Source: a virus | Lineage: Duplodnaviria > Heunggongvirae > Uroviricota > Caudoviricetes | IMG/VR virus record: IMGVR_UViG_2778261176_000001 | Strand: one strand, 5' to 3' | DNA length: 8,787 bases | In this document: in pieces, positions 2,653 through 8,417 of the stretch | Position numbering within the stretch: the first letter of the stretch is position 1 | Layout of the letters: each line of letters begins with the position of its first letter | The notes under the pieces: generated by a model | The model's database searches: none | Seen by the model: the letters and a program-made list of their open reading frames with translations, nothing else | Told to the model about the DNA's origin: nothing | Translations under genes and position numbers: made by a program

Positions 2653-2949
2653 TCACTCCTGTTCACTGGCCTCTTTGGCCATCTTCAAATACTGTTCAGG
2701 GCAATGCGCCATAACGCGCTGAAACAGTTCCAGCGCCAGATTGCGTTGCCCCTCATTAAATGCCATTGCCATAGCGTCCATCGGTGAGATAGCGGAAAAC
2801 ACACGGCCTTTCTCCAGCACCGACCAGACAACGCGACGCCCCTGTTCACTGCTCATGACAAAGCGAATGTCATCAATTTCACGCTGTGCCATGTCACGTT
2901 GCTTACGGGCGTTTTCTTCTTTCAGTTGATCGTCTTCGTAATCTGTCAT
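2653..2949 (-). CDS. Hypothetical small phage protein (98 aa) between portal and scaffold
   Basis: ATG start overlaps the portal stop (ATGA), suggesting translational coupling; stop lies within the SD region of the scaffold gene. Charged, helical-looking. Function unknown. Confidence 0.55.
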   Translation of the reverse strand: MTDYEDDQLKEENARKQRDMAQREIDDIRFVMSSEQGRRVVWSVLEKGRVFSAISPMDAMAMAFNEGQRNLALELFQRVMAHCPEQYLKMAKEASEQE

Positions 2950-4625
2950 TGTGATTGCCCACCCTGACCACTAACTGCATTAGCCATAGCTGACAAAACA
3001 CTCGGATCCGAAGTTTTAGCTTCGCTTAGCGTCTTGGCACCCTGTGCCGCCGCCATCCCCATCGCCATCATTTGTTGCTGCTGTTGTTGCTGTGCCCGTT
3101 GCTGGCGAGCCTGCTCAACCTGTTCCTGCGGAACAATGACGGTTGGAGACACTCCGGACATATCAGCGAATGCATCGATCGCCTGATCAACGTTGAGTTT
3201 GTCGAGAGCTTCTGGTTTCGCTTGCGCAAGTTGACCAATGAAGTTAACCGTGGACGCCAGACTGGACAGGCCGATAGACTTCTGCGCCTGAGCCATGACG
3301 GAAATGTATTCGACCTTCAGGGGCATACCTTCCATCGCGTCAGGCGGTGGCGGCAGCATGTTTTTACGCACCATCATCGAGAAAGCGCGGTCAATGAGAG
3401 GGTTAAGACATTCGTCGTTCAGACGCTCCAGAACCGGCCCCAACATCAGAAGTTTTTCTTCTTTCATTTCGATCACCGCTTCAACAGGCATCGAGCGGGT
3501 ATTGATGTTCTGCAACATCATGAACAGATCGACAAAGTAGGCGCTGTTAATGATTTGACGAGTGTCCTGAATGTCTGCTACCAGATCTGCTGTACTGGGG
3601 TTAACCAGATAAGCAGGCCTGAAACCATCCTGACCAGTAATCTGATCGATATACGTGATGTCGCCAGGAAGAAGGGAGGCGCGCTGATTCTTGAGGGAAG
3701 TCGGAGCAACCATCGGCGGATTGGTGGCTTTATCAATCAACTGCGACTTGCGCTTCTGGAGAAGCTGCAATGCCTTAACAGGTCCAAGCGCCAGCATACC
3801 CGGGCATGATGATCCATAAACATCTTCGCCATTAACTTCCCAGCGCGGAGCCATAATTGGAAACTCATCAAATCCGGACTCACGCAACAACTTGTCGTTA
3901 TCGCCACCAACCTCGTAATAAACCGATTTGAATGGCTTGTTCTTGCTATCCAGCTTCGATGTATCGCGGTCAATGTTCGGGTAAACCGAATGCATCACGT
4001 CAATCCACTTCTCGTAGGTGCCGCTTTCCCACATGCTTTTTACGGATTCGCTGACGTTATTTAGCCCGAACTCCTGAACAAGCTGACGAACAGTCATAGA
4101 GAACTTGCGAAAACAGGTGTCCACACTGCCACGAGGTGAGTTAGCCAGGTAGTAACTGCCTATCGGGAATGGCATTGTGCGAATGATGTCCTCGTCATCC
4201 TCCAGCACCGCCATTGCACCAGTGCTGTATGTGCCGAGGCTTCCGTATAACTGCGGAAGAGACTGGTAGAGATTCGACTTATTGAACATATCGTTCATGC
4301 GGTTCTGCACCGCCTCGAGCCACAACTTAACAGGACCATAATCCATCATTTCAGGATCTGGCGTAGCCAGGCGAAACCACGGACGCGCAGGGCTTGTGAT
4401 GCCTGACATCATGCCGCTGGCGAGAGTGCGCGCCGCCATAGTCCCGGTCGAATCAATAATGCGTGTATTGCGTCGATCGTTACGGTTGACCTCAGAAGTC
4501 AGAAAGCGGGAACCACGCGGGTTGATGTAATCACTCAACTCGCGCCAGTGCGGCTCGAACGACTGACGCTCGCTTTCAAGTTGTGCGAACTGTTTGTTCA
4601 ATCGCTCTTTAGTTGTTTCCGCCAT
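2946..4625 (-). CDS. Portal protein (T7 gp8-like head-to-tail connector family)
   Basis: 559-aa ORF with ATG start and GGAG SD. The N-terminal pattern and the Gln/Ala/Met-rich C-terminal tail (QQRAQQQQQQQMMAMGMAAAQGA...) resemble T7 gp8 as recalled from memory, not from an alignment. Confidence 0.85.
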   Translation of the reverse strand: MAETTKERLNKQFAQLESERQSFEPHWRELSDYINPRGSRFLTSEVNRNDRRNTRIIDSTGTMAARTLASGMMSGITSPARPWFRLATPDPEMMDYGPVKLWLEAVQNRMNDMFNKSNLYQSLPQLYGSLGTYSTGAMAVLEDDEDIIRTMPFPIGSYYLANSPRGSVDTCFRKFSMTVRQLVQEFGLNNVSESVKSMWESGTYEKWIDVMHSVYPNIDRDTSKLDSKNKPFKSVYYEVGGDNDKLLRESGFDEFPIMAPRWEVNGEDVYGSSCPGMLALGPVKALQLLQKRKSQLIDKATNPPMVAPTSLKNQRASLLPGDITYIDQITGQDGFRPAYLVNPSTADLVADIQDTRQIINSAYFVDLFMMLQNINTRSMPVEAVIEMKEEKLLMLGPVLERLNDECLNPLIDRAFSMMVRKNMLPPPPDAMEGMPLKVEYISVMAQAQKSIGLSSLASTVNFIGQLAQAKPEALDKLNVDQAIDAFADMSGVSPTVIVPQEQVEQARQQRAQQQQQQQMMAMGMAAAQGAKTLSEAKTSDPSVLSAMANAVSGQGGQSQ

Positions 4626-4639
4626 TTCAATGACTCCGG

Positions 4640-4846
4640 TTACTGACCAAGCAGCGTTTTACCGCTGGTATTAGCGGTTGATGTGTCGCCCTGAGAACCG
4701 GTAAGCAGCGTAGAACTACGACCAGCAGCAGCGCGACGGCGACGTGTTTCTTCGTCGCGGGCATCAACAACGGCGGCATCCTGCTCCTGTGGTGCTGCCT
4801 GAACTTCTGGTGTTGCAGGCACTGATGGTGAGCTACCCATGCACAT
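4640..4846 (-). CDS. Hypothetical small protein (68 aa), low-complexity Ala/Thr/Ser/Gln-rich with an Arg cluster
   Basis: ATG start preceded by CGGAGTCATTGAT, a near-identical copy of the portal's translation-initiation region (CGGAGTCATTGAA); TAA stop abuts the portal SD. GC-rich like the structural genes. Could be a head-completion protein; real but unproven. Confidence 0.4.
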   Translation of the reverse strand: MCMGSSPSVPATPEVQAAPQEQDAAVVDARDEETRRRRAAAGRSSTLLTGSQGDTSTANTSGKTLLGQ

Positions 4847-4869
4847 ATCAATGACTCCGTACGCAATTA

Positions 4870-4941
4870 AATTATTACCAATTTAACCACATATGATTTA
4901 TTTATCGTAGAAGGTTGACATTTAACGCGTGAATTATTACC
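4870..4941. repeat. 10-bp direct repeat AATTATTACC (4870-4879 and 4932-4941) flanking a TTGACA hexamer (4915-4920)
   Basis: Exact 10-mer twice within an AT-rich intergenic stretch; TTGACA matches the sigma70 -35 consensus but I found no convincing -10 at 15-19 bp spacing on the plus strand. Candidate promoter/operator region. Confidence 0.35.
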
Positions 4942-5273
4942 TTTCAGGTAACTAAAGAGCTCATTCTGGTTACTAACCTGACTGGCTTGTCGTTAAATTA
5001 AACAGGTGGAGTGAGCTTTTATTTTGAGCAGTACGGCGTATGGCACATGCGCCGATAGCGGTCTGGATACGTTTAAGGGGCACCCTCCCTTGCTCGGGCA
5101 AACGAACCAGGTAGCCAGAATGTGCAAGTCGAGCGGTTTTATTCCGCGCACGGGGATTCACCATCCCGGCGATTCGGTGTGACGCCTCGGAAGAGACGAG
5201 GGTACAACGATGAGAGCATTTATGGAGCCGCGACAAAGTGTGGCGCCTTAACAGGCTAAGTGCTCTCAGCGTT

Positions 5274-5350
5274 GTGGCATTAGCTCAGTCGGACAGAGCA
5301 ACCGCCTTCTAAGCGGTTGGTCGCAGGTTCGAATCCTGCATGCCACGCCA
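5274..5350 (+). tRNA. tRNA-Arg (anticodon UCU)
   Basis: Hand-folded cloverleaf: acceptor GTGGCAT/ATGCCAC, D-stem GCTC/GAGC, anticodon stem ACCGC/GCGGT with loop CTTCTAA (anticodon TCT), 5-nt variable loop, T-arm GCAGG-TTCGAAT-CCTGC, discriminator G, encoded CCA. All stems are Watson-Crick. Confidence 0.9.
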
Positions 5351-5393
5351 GAATCACGCCTAAGGACCGTGATGCCAGAAGTTCCAGGGGCTT

Positions 5394-5438
5394 GGCGGTG
5401 ATGGTTTCCCTTGAAGGACTATCACCGCCCTTTTTACA
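5394..5438 (+). terminator. Intrinsic terminator downstream of the tRNA
   Basis: GGCGGTGAT ... ATCACCGCC (9-bp stem, 18-nt loop with internal TCC/GGA pairing) followed by CTTTTTACA. Confidence 0.6.
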
Positions 5439-5513
5439 GCAGGACGCCATTGCGATGACTTCATGCTGTAAACCCGTACAGCCACGGAAGGCATAACTCA
5501 TTGCTTCCAGTTC

Positions 5514-5537
5514 GCCCGGTTCGCCGGGCATTTTTTT
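5514..5537 (+). terminator. Terminator/attenuator hairpin immediately upstream of the 140-aa ORF's SD
   Basis: GCCCGG-TTCG-CCGGGC (6-bp GC stem, UUCG tetraloop) followed by ATTTTTTT; the U-tract runs directly into the SD AAGGTGAG of the ORF starting at 5549. Confidence 0.5.
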
Positions 5538-5548
5538 AAGGTGAGATT

Positions 5549-5971
5549 ATGAAGACAATTGATATGTTGGCTAAGTATCTAAATGAATGGCCATTAAAAT
5601 ATTCTCGTATCGTTCAGGCTGAAGACTGCATTTTTTATGGCGTTTTTGCTGGTAATGAAATGCATTACGAAGTAATTCAGAGTGAGGGACTGACCGGGTT
5701 AACTCTTAGCGAAGACCATGGTACTAGCGTTACGTTCCATGACTGGATAACAGCACAACGTTCTGAAATGGAAAAAGGCGATGTGTTTGATATTTCTCGC
5801 TCTGTTTGCGCTAAAGCAAAAAGTGATAATGATTACATGAGCGAACACTTATACAACATGAAGCTACAGTGCCTTGCCGAGGTGCTTGGTAAAAAAGCTA
5901 TTGTCGATAAACAAGGCGCCATTAGCGAAGCAAAGGCAATAAATGCTGCATTTGATGAAATTATTTTCTAG
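5549..5971 (+). CDS. Orphan hypothetical protein (140 aa), AT-rich accessory gene on the opposite strand
   Basis: ATG start with AAGGTGAG SD; followed by its own terminator. Visibly lower GC than the flanking structural genes; no signal peptide or transmembrane segment by eye; no motif I recognise; no AGA/AGG codons. Confidence 0.7.
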   Translation: MKTIDMLAKYLNEWPLKYSRIVQAEDCIFYGVFAGNEMHYEVIQSEGLTGLTLSEDHGTSVTFHDWITAQRSEMEKGDVFDISRSVCAKAKSDNDYMSEHLYNMKLQCLAEVLGKKAIVDKQGAISEAKAINAAFDEIIF

Positions 5972-5975
5972 CTCT

Positions 5976-5989
5976 GTGACATGTCACAA
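5976..5989. repeat. Perfect palindrome TGTGACATGTCACA (core GTGACATGTCAC), copy 1
   Basis: 14-bp perfect palindrome 5 nt after the stop of the 140-aa ORF and just before its terminator; the 12-bp core recurs exactly at 8427-8438. Confidence 0.8.
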
Positions 5990-5991
5990 AC

Positions 5992-6020
5992 AGCCAGCCG
6001 ATGAGCTGGCTTTGTTTTAT
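5992..6020 (+). terminator. Intrinsic terminator of the 140-aa ORF (possibly bidirectional, shared with convergent terL)
   Basis: AGCCAGC-CGATGA-GCTGGCT (7-bp stem) followed by TTGTTTTAT on the plus strand; on the minus strand the same hairpin is followed by UGUUUGUG (weaker). A second hairpin ATCCTC-ATCA-GAGGAT lies at about 6021-6036. Confidence 0.6.
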
Positions 6021-6061
6021 CCTCATCAGAGGATATCAACGACATTATCCCCACCAGCGGA

Positions 6062-7537
6062 TTAATCATAGGGATCGTAATCTGTGATGGCCTTGCCTTG
6101 CTGGTTCTGCTGCCCGGGAATTCGCAGACGCTTCGACACAGGGAAAGCAAACGTCAGCAGTAGCGCATCGCCTTTACCCGGCGAGCGCCCAAGCCGCTCC
6201 TTGATATCTTCCTTCGGTTCGATAACGATTTTACCGTCCACGCGAACTTTGTACTCTGCCGCCGACAGGTCGTCCGCTGTTTCCTGGTCATCCAGCATGC
6301 CGCCCAGCCTCAGCCATGTCTTGCATGAGTTGAACATCTCCCCACGCTTGTTAAGCATCTGCGGGTCAGTAGACGCGCCACCGAACGGAACAAGTTGCCA
6401 TGTGCGCCCCCAACCGTCACCGATTGACTTCAGACCGGTACCGTAACCAAAGTCGATGAACACTGCGTCAGCCTGATACAGGTCTTCAAAGTCAGCGATA
6501 CGCTTCGCCATAATCAGATCGTCGGTAGTCTTGTTGCCAGTCCACAGCACCTTACTGTGTAGCCCCTGCCGCAGGTATATCACCGCGTCATCAACGCCTG
6601 AATATGCCGGGTCAACACCGATTATCACCGGAGCATGCGCCACCTGCGCAGCGGTTACCACCCGTTTCATTGCCTCATCAGTAAGACCGGTAGGGATAAA
6701 CTGCAATTCAGATGCATCAGGGAATATGCCGCGCACACGGATTTTAACGAAGTCGCTGTCTTCCCCGTAGTCATCAACCCATTTCTGCAACTGCTGTTTG
6801 TTAGTGCCTTCCACCGTCCGGCTGTCAATCTGCGCACACTTCCAGCGGTGTTTATATTTGCGGAAACATTCGCGGAAACGCCCGGTGTTACGTGTAGGGT
6901 TTCCGAACGCCACCCAGATAATCTCAGTGTCTTCGTCCGTAAGCGCACCCTCAGCAACTTCCCATACCAGATCCGCAATGTTCGACGCTTCGTCGAAAAC
7001 CACGATGATGCGTTTGCGCTCGTTGTGTAGTCCGGCGAATGCCTCAGTGTTGTGCTCAGACCAGGGGATTGCGTCAGCTCGCCACCGCTTGTCGTGCCCA
7101 GGATCATTGCTGTACATCGCGGTAGCGGTACAGGTAAACCAGTCTTTCGTGATAGCAAGGTTCGACCACTTGATAATTTCCGGCCAGGTCTTCGTTCGTA
7201 GCTGGTTGTCGGTGTTGGCGGTCACCACGACCTTACAATCCTCGCAAGTGGACATGCCCCAGTTGATCAGCATTGAGATGAATGCGGATTTACCAATACC
7301 GTGACCAGAAGCGCGTGCCAGCATAAGCGGCTGATAGCGCGTCTCTGGATTCTGCAGGTGATCACGTATCTCTCGGAACGCATCAGCCTGCCACTGACGT
7401 GGGCCGGTGGCATGTGCCAGTTCAGTCCCCTCTTCCCCCCACGGGAACGCATAGAGGGCATAGCCAAGCGGATCGTGAGTGAACCCTGCAATATCCTCGA
7501 TCAACTGCTCTTCAGGAGATAACGCTGTATCTGTCAC
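6062..7537 (-). CDS. terL: Terminase large subunit (ATPase + nuclease)
   Basis: 491-aa ORF; Walker A-like SGHGIGKS, Walker B-like IIVVFDEAS, C-terminal acidic nuclease-like motifs (IIGVDPAYSG, FIDFGYG); GTG start overlaps the terS stop (GTGA) with AGGA upstream. Confidence 0.85.
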   Translation of the reverse strand: MTDTALSPEEQLIEDIAGFTHDPLGYALYAFPWGEEGTELAHATGPRQWQADAFREIRDHLQNPETRYQPLMLARASGHGIGKSAFISMLINWGMSTCEDCKVVVTANTDNQLRTKTWPEIIKWSNLAITKDWFTCTATAMYSNDPGHDKRWRADAIPWSEHNTEAFAGLHNERKRIIVVFDEASNIADLVWEVAEGALTDEDTEIIWVAFGNPTRNTGRFRECFRKYKHRWKCAQIDSRTVEGTNKQQLQKWVDDYGEDSDFVKIRVRGIFPDASELQFIPTGLTDEAMKRVVTAAQVAHAPVIIGVDPAYSGVDDAVIYLRQGLHSKVLWTGNKTTDDLIMAKRIADFEDLYQADAVFIDFGYGTGLKSIGDGWGRTWQLVPFGGASTDPQMLNKRGEMFNSCKTWLRLGGMLDDQETADDLSAAEYKVRVDGKIVIEPKEDIKERLGRSPGKGDALLLTFAFPVSKRLRIPGQQNQQGKAITDYDPYD

Positions 7538-8130
7538 TGATTACAATCCTGACGTTCTTTGAGTCGCTTCCTGGCTGCTGCTATGCGATCAGCAATTGTC
7601 ACATTCACATTAACATCCAGGCGTTCTTTGAATGCATTGACATCGACGTGCTTACCAATCAGCTCAAGGTTCTTCACCTTGTCAGGCCATTTAATTTTTT
7701 TGAGGATTGTCTCTATCGAATCCTCGTTCATGTTCATGATGGTCGATGACAGATCAAAGCCGCTAAGCGTAGTGCGCCAGATTTTCGGCCACTCGCGGAT
7801 TGGCTTAAGGCTCCCATCGTCGTTGAGGATATCAATCACGTCCATCTGGTCGATCTCCACCAGGCGCATGAGAACGTAATCAGCACTGACACGCATTCGT
7901 TTGTTGCGCTCTTCCATCAGCTCGGCAATCCGTTTTTGAATGCGTTCATCGCGCATCATGACACTGGCTTTAACTGCCGCTGTATTTGGGGAGAATCCTG
8001 CGTTAATCGCTGCCTGAGTCTGGTTTTCAGGCGTTTTGATGTATGACTGGCAATAAGCCTCCTGCATTGCTGTGAGCGGCTTAAATTGCGTTGATTTGCG
8101 TTTATAGGTTTTAGGTTCAGCAGGCATCAT
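7534..8130 (-). CDS. terS: Terminase small subunit
   Basis: Directly upstream of and overlapping terL. The N-terminal region (KPLTAMQEAYCQSYIKTPENQTQAAINAGFSPNTAAVKAS) has the LTxxQxxFxxxY pattern of small terminase subunits as recalled from memory. The ORF-track start at 8208 is a TTG whose first 26 codons would translate a terminator hairpin and tandem repeats; I place the start at the ATG pair 8125-8130 (GGTGG upstream). The ATG at 8137-8139 is also possible. Confidence 0.7.
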   Translation of the reverse strand: MMPAEPKTYKRKSTQFKPLTAMQEAYCQSYIKTPENQTQAAINAGFSPNTAAVKASVMMRDERIQKRIAELMEERNKRMRVSADYVLMRLVEIDQMDVIDILNDDGSLKPIREWPKIWRTTLSGFDLSSTIMNMNEDSIETILKKIKWPDKVKNLELIGKHVDVNAFKERLDVNVNVTIADRIAAARKRLKERQDCNQ

Positions 8131-8138
8131 AACCACCA

Positions 8139-8169
8139 TGGTAATAGTTACCGTTGTGGTAATAGTACC
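8139..8169. repeat. Tandem near-palindromic repeats GGTAATAGTTACC / GGTAATAGTACC (10-bp exact direct repeat TGGTAATAGT, 18 bp apart)
   Basis: Read directly: 8139-8152 TGGTAATAGTTACC, spacer GTTG, 8157-8169 TGGTAATAGTACC; each unit has inverted arms GGTA(A)/(T)TACC. Located between a minus-strand terminator and the terS start. Candidate operator or TerS-binding (cosB/pac-like) sites. Confidence 0.55.
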
Positions 8170-8170
8170 A

Positions 8171-8199
8171 TGCAAAATAAAGCCGCCATAGTTGGCGGC
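8171..8199 (-). terminator. Intrinsic terminator between the 70-aa gene and terS
   Basis: Minus-strand RNA: GCCGCCA-ACUA-UGGCGGC (7-bp GC-rich stem) followed by UUUAUUUUG. Confidence 0.6.
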
Positions 8200-8204
8200 A
8201 GTAT

Positions 8205-8417
8205 TCAAAGTCCATCAAATTCATCGTAAAAACTCTCGTCAAGATACCCTTCCCATTTACCGCGAATGAAAATTACATCCTCGCCGCAAGGGTGCTGACT
8301 GTCGATAACTATATCCCTCCTGGCGCAACCATACTTATGCATGAGAAATTTAACCTCTTTCGGAAAATTTGCTGAGTTATCTCTCATATCTTCAAGGTCG
8401 TAGCGTATTTTTGGCAT
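8205..8417 (-). CDS. Hypothetical small protein (about 70 aa), AT-rich
   Basis: ORF-track ORF 8205..8438 starts at a GTG formed by the palindrome itself; the ATG at 8415-8417 is preceded by GAAGGTG and is the more likely start (MPKIRYDLEDM...). AT-rich relative to neighbours; function unknown. Confidence 0.5.
   Translation of the reverse strand: MPKIRYDLEDMRDNSANFPKEVKFLMHKYGCARRDIVIDSQHPCGEDVIFIRGKWEGYLDESFYDEFDGL

Follow-up and report, generated by a model that had tools for sequence, protein, structure and literature searches.

How is a phage gene expressed when the element immediately in front of it is a transcription terminator? The question is raised by an 8,787-nucleotide (nt) stretch of Caudoviricetes DNA (IMG/VR record IMGVR_UViG_2778261176_000001; the window, in what follows), in which a tRNA gene is followed on the + strand by two terminator-like hairpins, T1 (positions 5394–5436) and T2 (5514–5537). 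The U-tract of the second merges with the Shine–Dalgarno sequence (SD) of an open reading frame (ORF) for a protein of 140 amino acids (aa; 5549–5971, +), here called the cargo ORF. An initial annotation had read the two hairpins as tandem terminators about 75 nt apart, and had proposed either that the ORF depends on read-through (attenuation) or that the second hairpin is a regulatory element of its 5′ untranslated region (5′-UTR), with a loose likeness to type III toxin–antitoxin loci. The tandem arrangement after the tRNA, the GC hairpin with its UUCG loop and the fusion of its seven-U tract to the SD are all borne out by the sequence and a terminator scan. Comparison with relatives leads us to a broader answer: T1 and T2 are probably the tandem factor-independent terminators of an operator-controlled non-coding RNA unit, and the cargo ORF would occupy a promoterless slot fed by read-through.

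By its matches, the window is a Uetakevirus (epsilon15/phiV10-like) Escherichia coli prophage. BLAST matches to region 4900–6100 came from about 900 E. coli chromosomes as well as from Uetakevirus phages, of which phiV10, HEMP4, PAS61 and TL-2011b are the closest and epsilon15, SPN1S, Tyrion and Klebsiella phages more distant. Conservation of the module extends to 35 phage records, whose hosts belong to four genera, and to 530 of the 5426 complete E. coli genomes.

Tandem terminator structures on the + strand

Both hairpins combine a GC-rich stem-loop with an immediate U-tract, as intrinsic terminators do. T1 (GGCGGTGATGGTTTCCCTTGAAGGACTATCACCGCC) has a 14-bp stem (5394–5429) and a C-TTTTT-A tail (5430–5436), with a fold energy of −22.0 kcal/mol (z −5.1), and T2 reads GCCCGG-TTCG-CCGGGC (5514–5529; six G-C pairs, −11.2 kcal/mol, z −3.1), followed by an A and seven T residues (5530–5537). 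From the T1 tail to the T2 stem there are 75 nt (5439–5513). Such patterns are common in this DNA, with 10 terminator-like sites observed in the window and 8.7 in shuffled sequences; since the pattern by itself is no rarer than chance, the case for a function of T1 and T2 rests on comparison with relatives. Two alignments were used: one of the complete interval from the small gp3-like gene upstream to the ORF, from 16 loci, and one of the T1–T2 segments, with 86 distinct homologues from IMG/VR and GenBank.

Across the 86 segments, the T2 stem is paired in 98.6% of cells, with two adjacent pairs altered on both sides (GC to AU and GC to CG, in 17 sequences), giving GCCCAC/GTGGGC in place of GCCCGG/CCGGGC; the loop is TTCG, TTCGT or TTCA. 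T1 likewise shows double changes (one pair is G-C in 45 homologues and A-U in 33) and is also found in relatives as quite different stems (GTCGGTACCAG.../...CTGGTACCGAC). Such compensatory changes, which for both hairpins span phages of E. coli, Salmonella, Klebsiella and Enterobacter, indicate that the structures are under selection. The U-tracts, and the G-U pairs of T1, exist on the + strand only, the hairpins being followed on the − strand by GAACTGG and AAGCCCC, which marks both as one-directional. On these comparative grounds, T1 and T2 are selected terminator structures predicted to act on the + strand alone. The terminators themselves are of an ordinary kind: the T2 homologue is already annotated, by prediction, as a rho-independent terminator in the epsilon15 GenBank record. 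T2 is also retained where T1 or the tRNA is absent, as in epsilon15 and a Kluyvera locus (L159).

An exchangeable ORF docked on the T2 U-tract

The SD AAGGTGA (5538–5544) is contiguous with the T2 U-tract, and with its spacer (5538–5548; AAGGTGAGATT, then ATG at 5549) it makes up the entire 11 nt between T2 and the ORF. As the initial annotation had argued, this leaves no room for a promoter; beyond that, a promoter scan of the + strand from 5350 to 5549, together with inspection of the 75-nt spacer by eye, found no sigma-70-like promoter. A handful of candidates in the spacer and T2, none of them listed by the scan, were judged unconvincing: TTTACA-17-TGACTT, TTGCGA-based ones, a leaderless TAAGGT and a sigma-54-like GG/GC pair with the wrong spacing. 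With no room between T2 and the ORF and no promoter recognised in the spacer, read-through is the most economical reading, and the cargo ORF is most likely transcribed only by leakage through both terminators.

The comparison with relatives adds that the junction does not belong to this ORF. Homology continues through T2, the U-tract and AAGGTGA and ends at the start codon, and the junction ATTTTTTTAAGGTGA also precedes many unrelated ORFs. At 93 of 122 loci, T2-U7-SD-ATG leads into one of about 12 or more unrelated ORFs (25 different N-terminal hexamers), which include the Gp49/Sf6-gene-66 family (PF13876; phiV10 and epsilon15), the 140-aa family of the window, 61-aa and 143-aa families and a DUF2829 protein. 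At the other 29, an operator-containing promoter follows T2 in place of the SD and ORF, for example ATGACC-17-TATAAT (10/12) in L017 and GTGACT-17-TATACT in Klebsiella phage BUCT711. The suggestion that T2 is a 5′-UTR element or attenuator dedicated to the ORF fails at this point, as the module is conserved whatever comes after it. The BUCT711 type (L010 2228–2500; L085) also provides what we count as a second predicted case of a terminator abutting an SD: an 81-aa ORF, which has no Pfam or NCBIfam match, stands with its SD (GGAG) directly on the T1 U-tract (CTTTTTACCGGAGAAAAGTATG) and has behind it a small hairpin that is joined to hairpin A, the conserved hairpin of the T1–T2 spacer described below.

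The 140-aa protein falls in phrog_4846, a PHROG of unknown function, and has no match in Pfam, NCBIfam or PADLOC; its homologues are confined to Enterobacteriaceae and are all ‘hypothetical’. An AlphaFold2 model (predicted local distance difference test score, pLDDT, 81) resembles no PDB fold at E ≤ 0.001 and only weakly resembles some phage proteins, themselves uncharacterised. We regard the cargo ORF, from its predicted context, as an interchangeable, promoterless accessory gene and not as a fixed partner of the RNA. A further hairpin (5992–6011) separates it from the convergent gene for the terminase large subunit (terL); on the + strand it is a predicted terminator of the cargo ORF (TTGTTTT tail) and on the − strand a weak terminator, and its homologue is annotated as the terL terminator in phiV10.

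A predicted operator-controlled structured-RNA unit upstream

The + strand unit that T1 and T2 would close begins at a predicted promoter (4915–4943; −35 TTGACA at 4915–4920, a 17-nt spacer and −10 TACCTT at 4938–4943), whose elements recur as TTGAC(A/C) and TACC(T/C)T in every one of the 16 aligned loci. An operator-like palindrome, TTACCTTTCAGGTAA (4937–4951), overlaps its −10 and +1. The corresponding motif TTACC-N5-GGTAA is strongly enriched, with three sites in the window against 0.12 expected (4937–4951, 8130–8144 and 8148–8162) and 14 in phiV10 (L137) against 0.78 expected; two of the phiV10 sites lie in the repressor/cro-like intergenic region, and several lie just downstream of annotated terminators, at promoters. 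The epsilon15 GenBank record labels the homologous palindrome as a repressor binding site (‘repressor / lysogeny’). Because of this enrichment and this label, the unit looks like one of several operator-controlled modules of Uetakevirus phages.

Directly after the promoter lies a structured RNA domain of about 320 nt (4952–5273, +), for which RNAalifold predicts eight helices from 26 representatives. They include 5034–5042/5046–5054, 5058–5066/5115–5125, 5128–5130/5168–5170, 5153–5156/5164–5167 and 5185–5189/5197–5201, as well as a long-range helix (5203–5221/5258–5276) that encloses a hypervariable insert. In these helices 98.7% of cells are paired, and 10 pairs are altered on both sides, compared with 4.9 in shuffles (0 of 500 reach 10) and 1–4 in slid controls. 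The long-range helix is fully compensated in one phage (TAGCTCACT/AGTGAGCTA), and its insert often contains a T-arm-like GGGTTCGAATCCC. No Rfam family matches the domain (4952–5273). An extra 5′ helix, pairing about 4956–4964 with 5007–5015 (AGAGCTCAT/GTGAGCTTT), seems to covary with the Klebsiella versions AAGCGCAC/GTGCGCTT.

The domain is followed by a tRNA-Arg gene (5274–5350, +; anticodon TCT, CCA end encoded) called by ARAGORN and by the Rfam tRNA model at 73.3 bits. The slot is variable: some phages carry the tRNA-Arg, others non-canonical tRNA-like inserts bounded by GTGGTGA...CACCAC. In these inserts (L009, L012, L013, L014 and L005) the bounding sequences are acceptor-like, and a D-arm-like GCGC-AGGCTGAT-GCGC and a T-arm-like GCCGG...CCGGC lie between them. 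ARAGORN does not call them as tRNAs, and the Prokaryotic Genome Annotation Pipeline (PGAP) describes one (L014 2283–2397) as a 115-nt ‘pseudogenic tRNA-Gly’; the inserts may serve RNase P as handles for processing. Between the tRNA and T1, nearly all aligned relatives have a trailer hairpin (5353–5373, +; ATCACG-CCTAAGGAC-CGTGAT), kept with or without the tRNA; its stem is invariant and so gives no covariation information. The initial annotation was silent on the structured RNA, the operator-controlled promoter and the trailer hairpin.

A tRNA and a covarying structured RNA downstream of a single predicted promoter have the organisation of a stable-RNA operon, which is the classical setting of tandem terminators. 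We infer that the two RNAs are co-transcribed from this promoter; with them upstream, T1 and T2 would close a stable-RNA operon.

A nearly invariant hairpin between T1 and T2

The spacer is made of two unlike parts. The first, hairpin A (5433–5472, +), is a nearly invariant, irregular 40-nt hairpin that begins inside the T1 U-tract (TTTACA), has an apical CAU-[UGCG]-AUG and folds at −12.2 kcal/mol (z −2.8); the ACAGCA...TGCTGT inverted repeat picked out earlier is real and forms part of it (5436–5441/5464–5469). The second is a poorly conserved linker (5473–5513) with weak hairpins at 5474–5487 and 5489–5506, and in phage PAS61 the T2-proximal half of the spacer, comprising most of the linker (5479–5511), is deleted. 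Among five divergent spacer versions, hairpin A and T2 are the only folds in common.

Hairpin A occurs in 14 variants, every one of exactly 40 nt. Almost no change is seen in the outer arms TTTACA/TGTAAA or in the core ACGCCATTGCGATGAC. The one freely varying base (G, C or T) is position 2 of the apical U-N-C-G loop, which is closed by CAU/AUG, and pair 11–30 covaries between G-C and A-U along with neighbouring changes; G7, a stem position, is C or T in more than 20 sequences with no compensating change. The hairpin is 100% identical in the window and in a Klebsiella phage, the portal genes of the two being 65% identical. As judged from the sequences, this pattern of variation favours an RNA hairpin. 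The IMG/VR loci were gathered with the pattern ACGCCATTSCGATGAC, so that among them this 16-mer is invariant by design. Two sets collected independently of the pattern, one by BLAST and one from genome contigs, show just four changes in the 16-mer: those at the G/C/T position, a G→A (Klebsiella L169) and, in the AGCGCC variants (L005, L013 and L204), an A→G at its first base. A genome-contig scan with a 17-mer of the 5′ domain returned mostly chance matches, with only about 10 Enterobacterales loci being real.

Where upstream sequence has been replaced, the module boundary falls exactly at TTTACA. Hairpin A is missing, or swapped for a different structured leader of about 150 nt, in some distant prophages (Kluyvera, Kosakonia and Citrobacter types). 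In Citrobacter L156, Phytobacter L147, Kosakonia L138 and Enterobacter L206, T1 is followed by this leader (CAACAGAAAAGGGCA...TGCCCTTCTCTGTTG), then by a hairpin with no U-tract (GGCGGTTGCAGCCGCC) and an ORF, which in Citrobacter L156 starts MSNDRMT. In epsilon15 (L004 ~2440–2530), hairpin A and T2 are kept and the tRNA, the T1 5′ arm and most of the structured 5′ domain are lost, through a deletion that runs from one TTCCCTTGATGCT repeat, within the 5′ domain, to another, within the T1 loop.

How the unit may work, and what speaks against it

The order of the unit is promoter and operator, structured RNA of about 320 nt, tRNA-Arg(UCU), trailer hairpin, T1, hairpin A and T2. We envision that transcription from the operator-controlled promoter would yield the structured RNA and the tRNA, and that the majority of polymerases would be halted at T1. 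Those that escape would add the 40-nt hairpin A and then mostly be halted at T2, which, with the hairpin at 5992–6011, would keep the + strand unit from sending antisense transcription into the terminase genes, including terL. Since both terminators appear to act on the + strand only, they would block this antisense transcription and leave any late − strand transcription across the region free to pass. Translation of the cargo ORF would then be limited to the minor fraction of transcripts that extend past T1 and T2, aided by a strong SD after a U-rich tract. Its level would be low and proportional to the activity of the upstream promoter, of which it would be a small fixed fraction.

Several points weigh against this account. 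The −10 of the predicted promoter is weak, matching at three of six positions, and was for that reason unlisted by the promoter scan. Repression of this promoter in lysogens would follow from the operator by inference only, and some phiV10 operator sites are close to genes that lysogens should express (oac and int). The tail of T1 has only five U residues, and the spacer may hold a promoter that is not of the sigma-70 type or that depends on a phage factor. Hairpin A is conserved at least as well as the surrounding essential genes, for which a pure terminator role gives no reason. Finally, about one quarter of relatives supply the cargo with its own promoter, and read-through alone could be insufficient for some cargos.

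It is also quite possible, though short of probable in our judgement, that the RNA and not the ORF is the main product, the locus being an undescribed family of phage non-coding RNAs of which T1 and T2 form the 3′ end, with a role in lytic development or host interaction. Its members would be + strand RNAs of about 490–590 nt under operator control, always encoded at the terminase–portal junction in Uetakevirus phages. Each would be built from the covarying 5′ domain with its hypervariable insert, a tRNA or degenerate tRNA-like module as a possible processing handle, and a nearly invariant UNCG-capped hairpin that trails behind and ends at T2.

Alternative explanations

The conservation of hairpin A raises the alternative that the T1–T2 interval is itself a small RNA (sRNA) of about 105 nt (5433–5537), hairpin A plus an Hfq-type 3′ module, produced by T1 read-through and/or processing and pairing in cis with the late − strand transcript, to which it is fully complementary, or in trans, for example with the ribosome-binding sites of gp3 and portal. 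T2 could still be a terminator under this view, which fits a hairpin that is always 40 nt long, varies only at the second apical-loop position and one compensated pair, and is identical in E. coli and Klebsiella phages with diverged portal genes. T2 and its tract also give the interval a 3′ GC hairpin with a long U tail, and a seven-U tail is typical of Hfq-binding sRNAs. Outside the locus itself, the strongest complementarity to hairpin A in the phiV10 genome involves the portal SD and AUG (GGAGUCAUUGAAAUGGCGG, −25.2 kcal/mol), and the motif GGAGTCATTGA of that site also precedes gp3, the two genes sharing the ribosome-binding region GGAGTCATTGA(T/A)ATG (4847–4862 and 4620–4640, −). However, the duplex energy lies inside the range of shuffled queries (−22 to −30), and the portal/gp3 sites match part of the hairpin A loop in the phiV10 clade alone, with a partial match in Tyrion; in epsilon15, SPN1S and the Klebsiella phages they are not conserved even though the loop is unchanged. 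Targeting of portal and gp3 is thus a low-probability, clade-specific idea, read from complementarity, that we do not adopt. No sigma-70-like promoter was found in front of the interval, the sequence upstream of TTTACA is replaceable, and some relatives (the Kluyvera, Kosakonia and Citrobacter types) lack hairpin A. A weak, sub-threshold Rfam resemblance to sRNA 3′ ends could be counted in favour; above threshold Rfam returns the tRNA only, so that no known sRNA or riboswitch is identified, and the sub-threshold matches reflect the shape of a hairpin with a U tail. On balance we think a dedicated small RNA unlikely. The invariant arms TTTACA/TGTAAA and core, which offer no covariation signal, the uncompensated changes at G7 and the module boundary at TTTACA would suit a DNA-level site for protein binding or recombination, the tandem terminators being incidental. 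Against this, the phiV10 genome has no second copy of the hairpin A core or of the TTTACA-N-TGTAAA arrangement, and hence no repeated site, and both the covarying pair and the position of the free base, second in a UNCG-type loop, suggest an RNA hairpin; we consider a DNA site very improbable.

The terminators might instead be regulated attenuators, with a phage or host factor, a ribosome on a leader ORF or an alternative RNA fold switching the cargo on at a defined time. A promoter, a long structured leader, terminators and an SD in that order do resemble leader/attenuator and processive-antitermination units; a 13-codon ORF starts at an invariant ATG (5455), with AGGA 10 nt upstream in this clade; and the structured RNA sits directly after the promoter, where, by analogy only, it recalls the lambdoid put and nut antitermination sites, which lie just downstream of a promoter. 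The leader ORF, however, varies in length, frame and sequence, and the minimum-free-energy and centroid folds of the five divergent versions, the only folds computed, show no conserved antiterminator pairing with the T2 5′ arm. The spacer half next to T2 is the part deleted in PAS61, no riboswitch or leader family is recognised (no Rfam cis-regulatory match even at E ≤ 10), and T2 is unchanged where a promoter and not an ORF comes next. Processive antitermination would, moreover, also override the hairpin at 5992–6011 and run antisense into terL. Conditional read-through of this kind seems to us improbable, and of the attenuation first proposed we retain the read-through and drop the ORF-specific control. 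A type III toxin–antitoxin-like or abortive-infection locus, with the upstream RNA as antidote to the protein encoded past the terminator, recalls the ToxIN order of promoter, RNA, terminator and ORF. It is already contradicted, and we give it almost no weight: Tandem Repeats Finder (minimum score 30) finds no arrays in 4850–6060, in agreement with the absence of tandem RNA repeats remarked on at the outset; the 140-aa ORF has no ToxN/AbiQ/CptN or defence-family match in Pfam, PADLOC or NCBIfam, and no PDB fold; and unrelated ORFs swap while the RNA stays constant, some with their own promoter, leaving no cognate pairing. The reading of T1 and T2 as tandem terminators of the non-coding unit, with leakage feeding the cargo, is the one we carry forward.

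Genomic surroundings

The + strand block that holds both terminators, about 1.2 kb long, is set between head and packaging genes on the − strand. According to the layout of annotated relatives, these are the portal gene (2946–4625) and the small gp3-like gene (4640–4846) on one side and the genes for the terminase large (terL, 6062–7537) and small (7534–8208) subunits on the other; the adjacent palindromes at 8130–8144 and 8148–8162 lie within the start of the small-subunit gene. The whole interval 4850–5548 is conserved and non-coding. A − strand ORF of 83 aa (5280–5531), annotated as a protein in phiV10 (p04; PhiV10p04), TL-2011b (gp24) and BUCT554, was rejected as spurious: it overlaps the tRNA, T1 and T2 and suffers 1-nt indels among relatives, and is very likely, by these sequence features, a mis-annotation.

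Directly upstream of gp3, which is on the opposite strand, stands an almost invariant 35-nt block (4868–4902; AAATTATTACCAATTTAACCACATATGATTTATTT) that includes a half-operator, ATTATTACC; the head-gene operon may be controlled from here. Enterobacter phage Tyrion carries, downstream of its cargo ORF, an int-alpA RNA (L005 3066–3130; Rfam RF02996) that at 44 bits exceeds the gathering score.

Relation to known systems

Our literature search found no paper on the terminase–portal region, on Uetakevirus small RNAs or on the hairpin A core sequence. The closest likeness for the terminators is E. coli rrnB T1–T2, where stable RNA genes are likewise followed by two GC-hairpin/U-tract terminators on one strand, about 100 nt apart. 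Here, in contrast, part of the interval is taken up by hairpin A, almost invariant over its 40 nt, the U-tract of T2 runs straight into a ribosome-binding site so that a protein gene is predicted to depend on leakage, and the unit belongs to a phage and is under operator control, its terminators being known from sequence.

The cargo slot recalls the phage morons described by Hendrix and colleagues, accessory gene cassettes between essential genes that classically have their own promoter. Like a moron, the ORF is a variable accessory gene inserted between conserved terminase and head genes, opposed to its neighbours, swapped among relatives and provided with its own terminator (5992–6011). It differs in that no promoter-like site is present from 5350 to 5549 on the + strand: here and in about three quarters of relatives the cargo is promoterless and sits on a terminator U-tract, whereas in the remaining quarter a promoter of the classical kind, carrying the phage operator, is present.

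The systems ToxIN, CptIN and TenpIN have the same succession of promoter, non-coding RNA, intrinsic terminator and protein ORF, the terminator setting the ratio of RNA to protein, but here tandem RNA repeats and an endoribonuclease toxin family or fold are lacking, the protein is exchangeable and the RNA includes a tRNA. With Hfq-dependent or 3′-end-derived sRNAs, such as 3′ETS-leuZ, the locus shares a segment downstream of a tRNA, a GC hairpin with a U7 end and a very conserved possible seed; the likeness is confined to the 3′ module, and the sole candidate target, the ribosome-binding sites of portal and gp3, is specific to one clade. GOLLD, ROOL and the stable RNAs of the T4 tRNA cluster are, like the domain described here, structured phage RNAs of several hundred nt beside a tRNA or tRNA-like element, with hypervariable inserts in conserved helices. 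The present RNA differs in having no Rfam sequence or structure match, Enterobacteriaceae hosts, a smaller size and a fixed place at the terminase–portal junction with an operator-controlled promoter.

What is new is thus the conserved docking site formed by terminator, U7 and SD for a promoterless, exchangeable cargo, which is a variant of known themes. The unclassified structured-RNA operon that T1 and T2 close is more novel than the terminators: about 700 nt between the terminase and portal genes of compact genomes are given over to a conserved, structured non-coding unit with no known family. The conserved junction of promoter and operator, terminators and U7-SD is a natural, portable low-expression cassette. 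Promoterless accessory genes docked on a terminator U-tract are a recurrent design in common temperate enterobacterial phages, present in about one tenth of complete E. coli genomes, and the dose of such cargo would be set by terminator leak, not by a promoter, which bears on how prophage cargo is expressed.

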